In this document: in pieces, positions 5,328 through 64,000 of the stretch
Layout: the number at the start of each line of letters is the position of its first letter
Numbering within the stretch: the first letter of the stretch is position 1
The notes under the pieces: model-generated
What the model was told of the DNA's origin: nothing
The model's database searches: none
What the model saw: the letters and a program-made list of their open reading frames with translations, nothing else
Source of the DNA: Lingula anatina
Lineage: Eukaryota > Animalia > Brachiopoda
DNA: 64,000 nt
NCBI GenBank assembly: GCA_051362555.1
Contig: CM120647.1
Span: 1,860,001-1,924,000, forward strand
Direction of reading: 5' to 3'
Program-made: the position numbers and the translations under genes

Positions 5328-8300
5328 ATGCAGCGAACAGGAGAGGAGTTTATGATGTTGCTATTCCTCTCCGCTCTAGTATTCAATATGACCGGCAGAG
5401 CATCCACCTCCACAATTGTCAGTTCTTATCCAATTGGGCAGACAACGGTTGGGTTCAACAACATGGCGATTGACAACGTGACTGGGACTGTATACGTTGG
5501 AGCTGTTAATGTTCTCTACCGACTGGATGGTGACTTACAACTGTTACAGAACGGAACGACTGGACCAGTCACGGATAGTCCTTACTGCAGTCCACCTGGG
5601 TCTTTTTTTCCCTGCTCACAAGGAACGCCCACAGACAACTACAACAAAATCCTAGTAGTAGACCAGTCTAGAGGTAAACTGATATCATGTGGTAGCGTGT
5701 ACCAAGGTACTTGTGAGTCTCGACCAGTCACTGATATATCACAGGTTACCCCACATCGTGGTTCTGACCCTAGGGAAAATTACGTTGCCGCTAATTCCCC
5801 CGATGCTTCCACCGTGGCTTTTATAGCACCAGGACCCAACTCTCAGGACGTGTTATATGTGGCTTCTACGTACACGGGACAGGGGGAGAGTGGCAGGCTT
5901 CGGGAACAGGTGGCAGCTGTTAGTACAAGATCTCTACAGACACTGGAATTAACGAACTACAACGCACTGTCCGTTACGGGAACGTACATAGCCCTCGATG
6001 ACACTGCTCGAAGTACTTATCCAGTAAATTACGTTTCTGGGTTCTCTTTGAACGGCTATAGTTATTTCATCACGAACCAAAAGATGACACTTATCAGCAC
6101 AGAGTATGAATCCAGATTAGTTCGAATCTGCCAGAATGATATCAACTTCTATTCATACTTCGAAATGCCCTTGCGTTGCAAAGGTGTCAATCCTAACAAG
6201 TGGTTCAATCTGGCAAAATCAGTATCGGTAACAAAACTGGGAAATGATAGTGTACTAGTGGGAACTTTTGTCAAAGGATCTAGTTCAGCTTTGTGTGTAT
6301 TTTCAATGGGAAGCATAAACAATATAATAAAAGATAAATACGAGCATTGTTACGGTGGGAATGGAAATACAGTAGCTGCACCTTTCCCAGGAGGTTCACG
6401 GCAATGCCGTTCTTTTCCAGTAAGTTTACATTTAATCAATTTCAACATTGCTGGCCAATCAATAGTTATGTAAATAATACCAACTTTTTTAAAACAAGTG
6501 CCTAAGTTGTATTTGCAGATTGTCCATAAACATCTTATCTAATTTTGCCGTTCATCAAGAATTTATTAACTACTTTCACATCTGTATACATTTTAAACGA
6601 GGTACTTTCACATCCCCAGACCTATAATTACGGGTCAAAGTACTGCAACCATGACTATGGCGGTTCTAACACTCCCCTGGTGTCAACCACCCCGGCAACA
6701 TCAACCCCTGCTCTGACAGCCACGTCGTCCACATGGACAGCAGTAACCACAACCACCACCAGCTACACTGTGGCTTTTGTAGGAACTGCTGACGGACAAC
6801 TAAAGAAGGTACCGCACAATTGGGCAGTTAGTTTGATTGTATTTTAATATATTAAAAAACGCAACAGCACATGGCTGAATTTATCATTTGTTTAATAATG
6901 TAAGTATGGTAAAATCTACTTATCGAATGTATTGATTTAAAGTTTAGAGTTTGATAACGAATGAGGGTTTTATATTTTAACTTAAAAGTTAAACAAATCA
7001 CTCATATGATGAGGCACTAAAAAGGGCAAATAAAATTGTAATATATTCTAGCTAAAGCATTTTTCTTCTCACATTTTGTTCAAACTTACCTTTTAAAACA
7101 TGTTTTATATATGTCTCAACAAACCTTTCGTGCAATTTCTATCCGTTAATAATGTTTTCAGATATTAATCCAGTCTAATACATCTGCGGTAGAATATGCA
7201 TCAGTACAAGTATCAAACGATGAGGTAAAAGATATACAGTTAGATAGCACAGGAGAGCACATGTATGTTATGACCAAATACAAGGTGAGTGCTACAGAGC
7301 TGGCACAAGGAAAAGTAGCATAAACATGAGTATGTAGTTATATGGGGAAGTAAACCAAAGTACATTTTTAATTTTTTAAAATTGCTCTTTTTTAAATGGA
7401 AAAAAGTCATAATCAATCTTTAAGATTTATGTTTCAAATTGTTTATGTATGCCTTTAATTCGCCAAAGATGACCTAACATGGGCTTGGCTCAAATGTTCG
7501 ATATGTTTGGAATATCTATACACCTTTGACATTTTTGCCCAAGAACTAAATGTAATGAGAACAGGACTTTCAATTTAAATTATAAAACGAGGCAAATATA
7601 AGTCTATGTCAAACTTTTCCCAGGTCAGTAAACTGAAGGTAGAAGAGTGCGGTAGTTACAGTAGTTGTGATGATTGTCTGGCATCTAGAGACCCGTTCTG
7701 TGGGTGGTGTAGTCTGGAGAACAAGTAAGAATATTGTGTGGACGCATTTAATCGATTTGCTTTGCATTCCTGATGGCTAAAACCCGCTGTTTTGTAGAAG
7801 TTCGAGAAGCAATTAAGCATTCAACGTGTTCATATCAAAATGTATTTTAATAGCTATAGTTGCTGCGTTTTTAAATCTTAATTACGTGTGTAAGTAAGTA
7901 TGCGTGGCAAAATGTTGCAGAAAAATAAAGGAACAATATTCTCATATTTTATTAACTATGTATTTCCACACAGTTACTGTCTTGAATCTACCGACACAGA
8001 TTGCCTTAAATGGCCAGTTTTGAACGTGTGACTGAAAAACTCATGCATACCTTACACCATCCATTTTTGTCATCAAACAGGATGCTATGTTTTTTTTAAG
8101 TGGAACGAAATGTTGTCTTTTAATGCAAGGAACAATCTGCTTCATGTATTTCTTTTTCAGATGCAGCAGAAAAAGTCAATGCTCGGATGCAGATGGGTCA
8201 GGAAGATGGCTTCCCTTTGATAATGGACAGTGTACCAAGATCAATACCATTTCACCATCAAACACACCTCTAGCCAGACCCACACAGGTACAAATAATTA

Positions 8301-63600: not shown

Positions 63601-64000
63601 TACATTTACAATACCTTACAGCACTCACCCAGTTAATGATGACATCAGGACAAGTGCTCTCAACTGGCACACTGCATGTTGGGCGATACTTGCACGTCCC
63701 TCCACAGAAAGCACAACCAAACTTTGTATCCACACCACCAATACACGTGCCACATGTGGTGCCCATGACGTCACACTTGTACAGGATGGCTGAAAATATT
63801 GAAAATATTTCAGTGTTGTGTTTTACCAAATAATCGATACATGTTCAACATGAATACATGTATGCGTATCCATAATGTGTGTAAGTGTTACAAATAGTAG
63901 TTCATATGCATGCATTTTAGGAGAACTCTTATTATTGAGGAGATTTTGGGCGTTATTCTGTTTTTTACCAAAATGGAATAATAATAATAATTTTTTTATT
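51689..64000 (-). CDS. RTK2: paralog of RTK1 (plexin-type ectodomain/MET-like kinase); 5' part lies beyond the window
   Basis: Exons of the same length as RTK1 exons 12-25: 63789-63629, 63416-63268, 62943-62829, 62309-62161, 61926-61750, 61500-61404, 61164-60871, 60574-60434, 60209-59861, 59632-59549, 59179-58995, 58747-58638, 53704-53542, 53038-52902, and last exon 51854-51689; [20 protein letters not shown] and DFG intact; no stops or frameshifts seen. Confidence 0.9.
53850..58050. mobile_element. ~4-kb non-coding insertion with degenerate subterminal inverted repeats in RTK2 intron 23
   Basis: This intron is ~4.9 kb versus 218 bp in RTK1; gcgaactatccttttgttcaacagcttcgcgcgtgcagctg (54042-54082) is inverted to cagctgcgcgtgccaaactagtgaacaaaaggacagttcgc (57832-57872). 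Ends approximate. Confidence 0.55.
58253..58560. repeat. ~160-bp tandem duplication (2 copies)
   Basis: aaagtcttttag..ccagggcatc..caaattata.ctgcttatctcattaataataat..tttaaaacaactgctgtactgaaattacc occurs twice. Confidence 0.85.
59224..59282. repeat. (TA)n microsatellite
   Basis: Perfect TA run. Confidence 0.95.

Follow-up and report, generated by a model that had tools for sequence, protein, structure and literature searches.

Where genes for small secreted proteins lie between genes for receptor kinases, does their closeness reflect a partnership of ligand and receptor, or the way in which the region was built? The question is raised by a stretch of 64,000 nucleotides (nt) from the brachiopod Lingula anatina (assembly GCA_051362555.1, contig CM120647.1, positions 1,860,001 to 1,924,000 of the forward strand), called the window in what follows and numbered from its first letter, in which two receptor tyrosine kinase (RTK) genes, RTK1 and RTK2, enclose four small genes, c1 to c4, whose products, predicted to be secreted, resemble part of Diedel, an insect cytokine known from Drosophila. 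A first, sequence-only reading had taken the whole as a candidate immune module of linked ligands and receptors. The layout, a pair of Met-LP-type kinases enclosing four genes with the SD2 module of Diedel, is in our judgement probably, though by no means surely, the product of local segmental duplication rather than of a ligand-receptor partnership.

Organisation of the locus and its probable origin

The window has a base composition of about 37% G+C, and its DNA is eukaryotic in character. The features on which the argument turns are the following:

5328..23296, plus strand, RTK1, Met-LP-type receptor tyrosine kinase with Sema, PSI, IPT repeats, transmembrane stretch and MET-type kinase
25692..27849, minus strand, Diedel-SD2-like gene c1 (exons 27849-27730, 27229-27120, 26877-26791 and 25743-25692)
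31301..33181, minus strand, Diedel-SD2-like gene c2 (open frame, no ATG; Pfam Diedel 30.8 bits)
38010..39958, minus strand, Diedel-SD2-like gene c3 (Pfam Diedel 30.4 bits)
43246..44303, minus strand, copy of the RTK2 3' end (last coding exon and flanks) between c3 and c4, with direct repeats D13 (98%) and D15 (92%)
45112..46745, minus strand, Diedel-SD2-like gene c4 (Pfam Diedel 31.3 bits)
51692..64000, minus strand, RTK2, paralogue of RTK1 in inverted orientation, seen here from the exon of the third PSI as far as the stop codon, with the Sema end beyond the window

RTK1 and RTK2 are convergent, with about 28.4 kb from stop codon to stop codon, in line with the roughly 28 kb first given; that the two genes face each other is agreed upon by the open reading frames (ORFs), the exons recognised by Pfam and 15 inverted repeat pairs (I1-I15, 83-99% complementarity). 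A repeat search found direct-repeat families spaced 5.3-6.8 kb between 25 and 47 kb, and self-comparison delimits four tandem units, at about 24.0-29.2, 30.0-36.1, 37.2-41.0 and 44.3-47.7 kb, each of which holds one four-exon gene on the minus strand. These kilobase-long similarities, at 74-99%, are far above chance. Gene models for c1 to c4 were made by reading the exons in unit 1 (minus strand) and mapping them onto the other units, and none of the four copies has an interrupted reading frame.

The 1.06-kb piece at 43246-44303 copies 51667-52751, with 88% identity over 1095 columns and 98% over the first 300 nt, and has kept the orientation of RTK2. The sequence-only reading had spoken of a captured RTK2 exon; the copy exists, but it is most simply regarded as a by-product of a tandem duplication with its right breakpoint in RTK2, with no purposeful capture of an exon. 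On the duplication reading, a single Diedel-SD2-like gene beside the 3' end of an RTK would have been multiplied by unequal tandem duplication, one breakpoint of which, inside RTK2, would have left the stray exon copy between c3 and c4, and the RTK pair itself would stem from an inverted duplication whose two halves may still exchange sequence by gene conversion. Since c1 to c4 all lie on the minus strand, the array stands outside the inverted RTK duplication. Both families have duplicated locally, as had been claimed, and at about one time, the synonymous divergence (dS) being 0.18-0.32 among c1 to c4 and about 0.24-0.30 between the RTKs. This similarity points to one period of local rearrangement, and it fits a duplication-prone region and a co-evolving pair equally.

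The kinases

Met-LP kinases, as Junqueira Alves et al. (2019; PMC6374515) describe them in the part of their survey consulted here, have a complete plexin-type ectodomain, a single transmembrane stretch and a MET-like tyrosine kinase. The same part of the survey places them in an annelid, a mollusc and a starfish, gives their ligands as unknown, suggests semaphorins as retained ligands and reports neither Met nor Met-LP in Ecdysozoa.

In the Protein Data Bank (PDB), the best match of the first exon of RTK1 (381 aa) is Drosophila plexin A (E 9.4e-54); vertebrate plexins follow, with E values of about 1e-33 to 1e-38, then MET (1.3e-21) and RON (1.8e-11). Pfam Sema is found on exons 1 and 2, and among the 120 matches listed, of 219 obtained in a database search with the Sema exon, almost all are plexin A. 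This search also returned P0002, a Lingula protein of 927 aa, at 75% identity; RTK1 is collinear with its residues 1-913, along which the domain order is Sema, PSI, TIG_plexin, PSI_PlexinA-B, TIG_2 and TIG, and the model of P0002 has no kinase domain. Further TIG exons of RTK1 score 34.5, 26.7 and 25.2 bits, and one, at 15.2 bits, stays under the cut-off. After them come a hydrophobic stretch, taken as transmembrane, and kinase exons with HRDLAARN and DFG, of which two have MET as their best match (E 1e-12 and 1.1e-15), followed by RON; Pfam PK_Tyr_Ser-Thr is matched as well. The plexin cytoplasmic domain was absent from the eight RTK1 ORFs beyond the Sema region that were scanned with Pfam, out of 23 ORFs of the window in that scan. 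RTK1 agrees with Met-LP in its complete plexin ectodomain (three PSI and six IPT, of which the third PSI and the precise number of IPT were read from the sequence, unscored), its transmembrane stretch, its MET-type kinase and its lack of a plexin GAP domain, and by their predicted domains RTK1 and RTK2 are of the Met-LP type, with a plexin-A-type ectodomain joined to a MET-type kinase.

MET and RON, the receptors of HGF and MSP, bind plasminogen-like growth factors. They have in common with RTK1 the Sema domain at the N-terminus and the kinase, which in RTK1 is most like that of MET and then that of RON. Their ectodomain is short (Sema, one PSI, four IPT, by the account in PMC6374515), whereas RTK1 keeps the plexin-specific parts collinear with P0002, and its Sema exon lies far nearer plexin A than MET, by the E values given above. 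The earlier description of the two genes as orphan Sema-domain RTKs is sound as to the Sema domain, the kinase and the want of a known ligand, but the class had already been described as Met-LP, and the consulted part of the 2019 survey already suggests semaphorins for it. Lingula differs from the described cases in its convergent pair of paralogues with signs of gene conversion and in a duplicated four-exon cassette in RTK1; in a search of the literature that joined Lingula anatina with plexins and tyrosine kinases, no report of Met-LP in brachiopods was found. A protein of the tardigrade Paramacrobiotus metropolitanus (P0103, 1886 aa) combines Sema, PSI and TIG domains with a tyrosine kinase (195 bits), a Met-LP-like design in an ecdysozoan, and the 2019 survey of Ecdysozoa is therefore incomplete.

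The kinase exons of RTK1 and RTK2 differ with dS 0.30 and a ratio of nonsynonymous to synonymous divergence (dN/dS) of 0.19 over about 285 codons, and the IPT6 and transmembrane exons with dS 0.24-0.26 and dN/dS 0.37-0.49. The genes are 76-94% identical except for one inverted stretch of 1235 nt, RTK1 15731-16965 against RTK2 62766-64000, where identity is 99%; three exons near the window end encode identical protein in both. The 99% stretch is a sign either of gene conversion between the two inverted genes or of a misassembly. It bears on the four-exon cassette, which RTK1 holds twice:

11384..12879, plus strand, first copy of the RTK1 four-exon cassette (93+100+161+149 nt), with about 83-91% identity to the second
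15098..16463, plus strand, second copy of the RTK1 four-exon cassette, within the stretch 99% identical to RTK2 (inverted pair I1), the three exons compared encoding the same protein as in RTK2

Both copies have open frames and splice sites, and the exons of each add up to 503 nt. As 503 is not a multiple of 3, an mRNA containing both copies would be out of frame, and it may be supposed that the copies are used in a mutually exclusive manner or that one of them is skipped. Elsewhere within RTK1, a minisatellite at 10233-10642 consists of five 82-nt units resembling a piece of an RTK exon (P0002 residues 604-646), and between the cassette copies, at 13202-13976, lie two overlapping minus-strand ORFs (117 and 164 aa) with no Pfam match.

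The small proteins and the SD2 module of Diedel

According to the portion of PMC3307722 used here, Diedel (Drosophila CG11501; PF13164; PDB 3ZZO/3ZZR) has a ferredoxin-like subdomain, SD1, formed by residues 29-59 and 90-117, and a second, SD2, formed by the first four mature residues and the loop 60-89, in which an exposed Ile-Phe is held by a conserved Asn. With Diedel the small proteins of Lingula share a signal peptide followed by a mature N-terminal Cys-Cys, which directly follows the predicted signal peptide in all four copies, and the loop motif C-G-x-G-x-C-N-I-F-G-C-x-C-x-G-G-C with its exposed, conserved Asn-Ile-Phe patch (described for Diedel in the same source). Exon 2 matches the Pfam Diedel family at 30.4-32.7 bits (c1 32.7 bits, the other copies as listed above; cut-off 21.3), the match on exon 2 being confined to profile positions 45-69 of 76 and that of the proteins to positions 35-67.

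Exon 2 of one of the small genes is 97% identical to P0001 (LOC106160243, an uncharacterized protein of Lingula anatina, 138 aa), which itself scores 26.7 bits with Pfam Diedel and matches 3zzo, the Diedel crystal entry, at E 2.6e-4 over 32 residues. The AlphaFold model of P0001, built from a 72-row alignment (mean pLDDT 79; block means 86-94 for residues 41-80), has no strand of three residues or more and a C-terminal helix-loop-helix. Foldseek of this model against the PDB gave only the two Diedel entries, and these weakly (E 0.11 and 0.26; TM 0.21/0.30), and in a structural comparison against 48,161 chains (VIA) only two chains reached Z >=2, namely Diedel (Z 3.3, root mean square deviation 4.6, 50 residues) and the synthetic EF-hand peptide 1cta. 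Structure matches of P0001 in the Atlas were all bacterial, with TM <=0.36, and were disregarded; the feature matches there, to eukaryotic EF-hand clusters with scores of 0.90 and 0.88, are a lead only.

A ferredoxin-like SD1 subdomain was found in the small proteins neither in the sequence nor in the Pfam span, the model, Foldseek or VIA. The first SD1 segment of Diedel has 31 residues, whereas only about 17 residues separate Cys-Cys from the loop in the Lingula proteins, which have 12 cysteines in place of 10 and end in a dibasic site and an EF-hand-like tail, both of which Diedel lacks. Diedel uses an RGD motif for integrin binding, by the account in PMC9116668; the motif is present in none of c1 to c4 and in none of the first 60 family matches listed. 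Because the Pfam and PDB matches reach only the SD2 loop, the small proteins are, as far as sequence and model can tell, carriers of the Diedel SD2 module and not whole Diedels. Their first description as Diedel-like is accurate for this loop, but not for the missing SD1 half and RGD.

The tail of the P0001 model superposes on 1cta with Z 2.0 and a root mean square deviation of 1.8 over 33 residues. P0001 has no match among the Pfam EF-hand families, and when its loop is aligned to that of a paralogue whose EF-hand passes Pfam (P0123), Lys and Val stand at the calcium-ligand positions 3 and 5; c2 to c4 have Gln in place of Glu at position 12. The canonical calcium ligands at loop positions 1, 3, 5 and 12 are incomplete in c1 to c4, and the tail is by these signs a single degenerate EF-hand.

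As to the state of the four genes, the start codon of c2 is replaced by AAA, and the CAG acceptor of a short intron in its 5' untranslated region reads CAA, on account of which c2 is judged likely to be a pseudogene. The 400 nt upstream of c1 to c4 are 88% identical by column and include a TATA-like box and a TGACTCA box, to the second of which no meaning is attached. P0001 matches c1 exactly from residue 17 on, and its first 12 residues are exon 3 read out of frame, a string identical in c1 and c2. As it starts in this way, the NCBI model begins in the upstream copy and reads through, so that P0001 appears to represent a transcript that continues from c2 into c1. This start concerns 27849-32177 of the window (c2 exon 3 to c1 exon 1), and the model joins an acceptor just before the c1 start codon. 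Unit c1 also has an insertion of about 350 nt at 26420-26763, missing from c2 to c4, which sits in intron 3 and therefore leaves the gene unbroken.

Constraint and predicted processing

Pairwise comparison of c1 to c4 gave dN/dS of 0.29-0.48. By region, the ratio of nonsynonymous to synonymous differences per site (pN/pS), summed over the six non-independent pairs, is 0.06 in the signal peptide, 0.19 in the Asn-Ile-Phe (NIF) core, 0.84 in the stretch after the core and 0.43 in the tail. In the six residues after Cys-Cys it is 1.5, with counts (27 nonsynonymous and 6 synonymous differences) too small for a test; the figure is suggestive of a loop that diversifies, and the four paralogues may be said to differ chiefly in this one six-residue loop.

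All eight Lingula paralogues checked have 12 cysteines, after which come C-x-C, one to four residues and a dibasic site. The signal peptide would likely be cut just before the residue that precedes the N-terminal Cys-Cys, and the disulfide knot would then display the conserved Asn-Ile-Phe patch, as it is exposed in Diedel. Because a dibasic site follows the twelfth cysteine in all eight paralogues, cleavage by a convertase may be predicted at this conserved site, and it would release the knot from the EF-hand-like tail. The freed knot likely binds some extracellular partner, one that the locus does not identify.

An old and dispersed family

The wider family was visible only in an exhaustive search: a word-index protein search with P0001 returned P0001 alone, whereas the exhaustive search gave 146 cluster representatives at E <=0.001 (P0001 included), four of them at E <=1e-10. 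The usual order among these matches is signal peptide, Cys-Cys, short linker and loop motif, often followed by EF-hands. When 23 family members were compared with Pfam, Diedel was matched at E <=0.01 in 15, of which 9 lie above the cut-off, and EF-hand families in 16; two, P0127 (24.4 bits) and P0172 (29.0 bits), pass the SPARC calcium-binding domain (cut-off 22). The 20 representatives looked up include seven from Lingula, one from the springtail Allacma fusca, one from the mite Oppia nitens and one cluster with a member from Daphnia galeata. The knot is also found fused, to EF-hands and a PI-PLC X domain in one case and to a PAN/Apple domain in another, in P0153 (445 aa) and in the P0167 cluster, which has the Daphnia galeata member. 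By its sequence distribution the Diedel-SD2 knot is a portable disulfide-knot module, found far outside insects and their viruses and often joined to EF-hands. No literature treating Diedel together with Lingula was found, and in the portions seen of what is published on Diedel with EF-hands or on 'Diedel-like' proteins, nothing is apparent on lophotrochozoans or on a knot-plus-EF-hand design.

Counting extra cluster members, Lingula has at least nine further loci of the family, spread over eight other scaffolds of 589,510, 605,865, 359,402, 70,723, 279,117, 993,901 (two adjacent genes), 1,890,239 and 63,214 bp, told apart from the 497,196-bp contig of P0001 by size alone. P0002, the one further Lingula protein with a paralogous RTK ectodomain among the matches listed, is on a separate scaffold (576,015 bp). 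A quick tree of 66 rows (c1 to c4, the matches P0122-P0199 of 90-200 aa, P0267 and P0269, with P0200-P0266 and shorter or longer matches omitted) places c1 to c4 in one clade (SH-aLRT 100, stem 1.05) within a loose Lingula cluster; tree paths are 0.12-0.21 inside the array and about 1.7 to the nearest other paralogue. On this tree c1 to c4 have expanded recently and locally within a family that is old and dispersed. A search with an 11-row alignment (the 72-row one being too diverse for the purpose) gave 20 metagenome loci with the knot motif. Four of these (L004, L005, L011 and L016) have several tandem matches each, so that tandem arrays of the family are common elsewhere.

Alternative readings of the locus

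The small proteins might be secreted defence or toxin-like effectors, their variable loop the outcome of an arms race and the kinases unrelated neighbours. Such a role would suit the tandem expansion, the strongly conserved signal peptide beside a variable mature loop and the conserved dibasic processing site, and Diedel-like proteins are named in connection with a study of caterpillar setae and one of wasp venom. Yet dN/dS over the whole protein stays below 0.5, and the c1 knot is not cationic, acidic and basic residues being about equal by our own count on the sequence; we consider this role unlikely.

Calcium-binding proteins of the matrix or shell, secreted and marked by an EF-hand, again with unrelated kinases as neighbours, would accord with the EF-hand and SPARC matches in the family, with the superposition of the P0001 tail on 1cta and with the EF-hand domains that, in the section of PMC13425148 consulted, occur in all lophotrochozoan shell proteomes compared. 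What makes this very improbable for c1 to c4 is the state of the tail itself, in which P0001 lacks a Pfam EF-hand match and shows Lys at loop position 3 and Val at position 5, c2 to c4 have Gln where the last Glu of the loop belongs, and a single EF-hand is left, with no pair; in addition, the accessions of five Lingula paralogues and LOC106160243 do not appear in one supplement file of PMC13425148, which may use other identifiers.

The reading with which this study began has the Diedel-SD2-like peptides act on the neighbouring Met-LP kinases as ligands or modulators, matched variants being held together by linkage while both families diversify. In its favour are the tight linkage, with only the four small genes and repeat remnants found in the interval when ORFs of at least 90 aa are considered, the similar duplication ages of small genes and RTKs, the hypervariable peptide loop (pN/pS 1.5) and the lack of known Met-LP ligands as stated in the part of PMC6374515 consulted. 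Against it, the peptide family is old and dispersed, nine or more of its Lingula loci being found on eight further scaffolds and P0002 on yet another, and it has relatives in the springtail, the mite and the water flea named above, that is in ecdysozoans, where the 2019 survey, in its consulted part, reports no Met or Met-LP (the tardigrade protein notwithstanding). Semaphorins are the partners of complete plexin ectodomains in every case studied, and they are what the 2019 paper, in the same part, proposes for Met-LP. The sequence-only reading also knew of no established receptor for Diedel, a premise that is outdated: Drosophila Diedel is reported as a ligand of RGD-binding integrins (PMC9116668, as far as consulted), and this sole relative with a reported receptor thus uses an RGD motif that none of the four copies has. 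The shared direction of c1 to c4, moreover, sets them apart from the inverted duplication of the kinases. Among the 20 metagenome loci with the knot motif, none has a Sema or plexin domain and one (L011) has a kinase, but their sources are unknown and they say little on animal synteny; the L011 kinase was rejected as a receptor, being a 562-aa intronless ORF that starts directly with the kinase domain. That the peptides act on their neighbours in this way is, we believe, a long shot, and none of the findings shows an immune role.

Three points weigh against the duplication reading. Duplication at the same age and tight linkage would also be expected of a co-evolving pair; the hypervariable and presumably surface-exposed loop fits a role in recognition, by counts that are small and come from six non-independent pairs; and the sizes of scaffolds are the sole ground for the claim that the linkage is not general.

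The boldest form of the ligand hypothesis borrows from plants. At the S-locus of Brassica, the SCR/SP11 peptide gene lies beside the SRK receptor kinase gene, and both binding and co-variation of alleles have been shown experimentally. What the two cases have in common is a receptor kinase gene and, in tight linkage with it, a gene for a small cysteine-rich peptide that is secreted; the proteins belong to unrelated families, and in Lingula nothing beyond the closeness of the genes suggests such a pairing. That Diedel-SD2 knots are the missing Met-LP ligands, with the loop after Cys-Cys setting which paralogous kinase, or which cassette form of RTK1, is engaged, is conceivable and scarcely to be expected; peptides and receptors would then duplicate and diversify together, and the locus would be an animal counterpart of the S-locus.

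Other features of the window

Two further features complete the map:

3..1292, minus strand, N-terminal part of a TRIM-type gene (Pfam RING and B-box; single 430-aa ORF; 3' part beyond the window start)
49473..49760, minus strand, THAP-domain ORF (Pfam THAP 30.6 bits; adjoining ORFs in other frames)

The first scores 41.8 bits with zf-RING_UBOX and 41.7 bits with zf-B_box, both above the cut-offs, and is called a TRIM-type gene from the RING and B-box of its N-terminal part. Its ATG, near 1283, is about 4 kb from the RTK1 ATG at 5328, and the head-to-head arrangement with RTK1 is as the sequence-only reading had it. That reading was less complete for the interval between the kinases, which does contain the four Diedel-like genes, repeats and the RTK2 exon copy, but also the THAP-domain ORF, a likely transposon remnant and the one additional domain recognised there. 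None of 17 additional ORFs (90 aa or longer) drawn from the interval and from RTK introns gave a Pfam match, a scan that genes with small exons could escape.

Significance

The name Met-LP dates only from 2019, and neither a ligand nor a function is known for these kinases. To them the locus adds a pair from a brachiopod in which signs of gene conversion are seen and an exon cassette is duplicated, and for the Diedel-SD2 knot, a family on which no literature was found, it shows a reach far beyond insects. For the present it deserves to be seen as a well-characterised candidate for a simple test of binding, and not as a discovered module. If binding between peptide and kinase were true, it would give the Met-LP receptors a ligand and knots of the Diedel type a signalling receptor.

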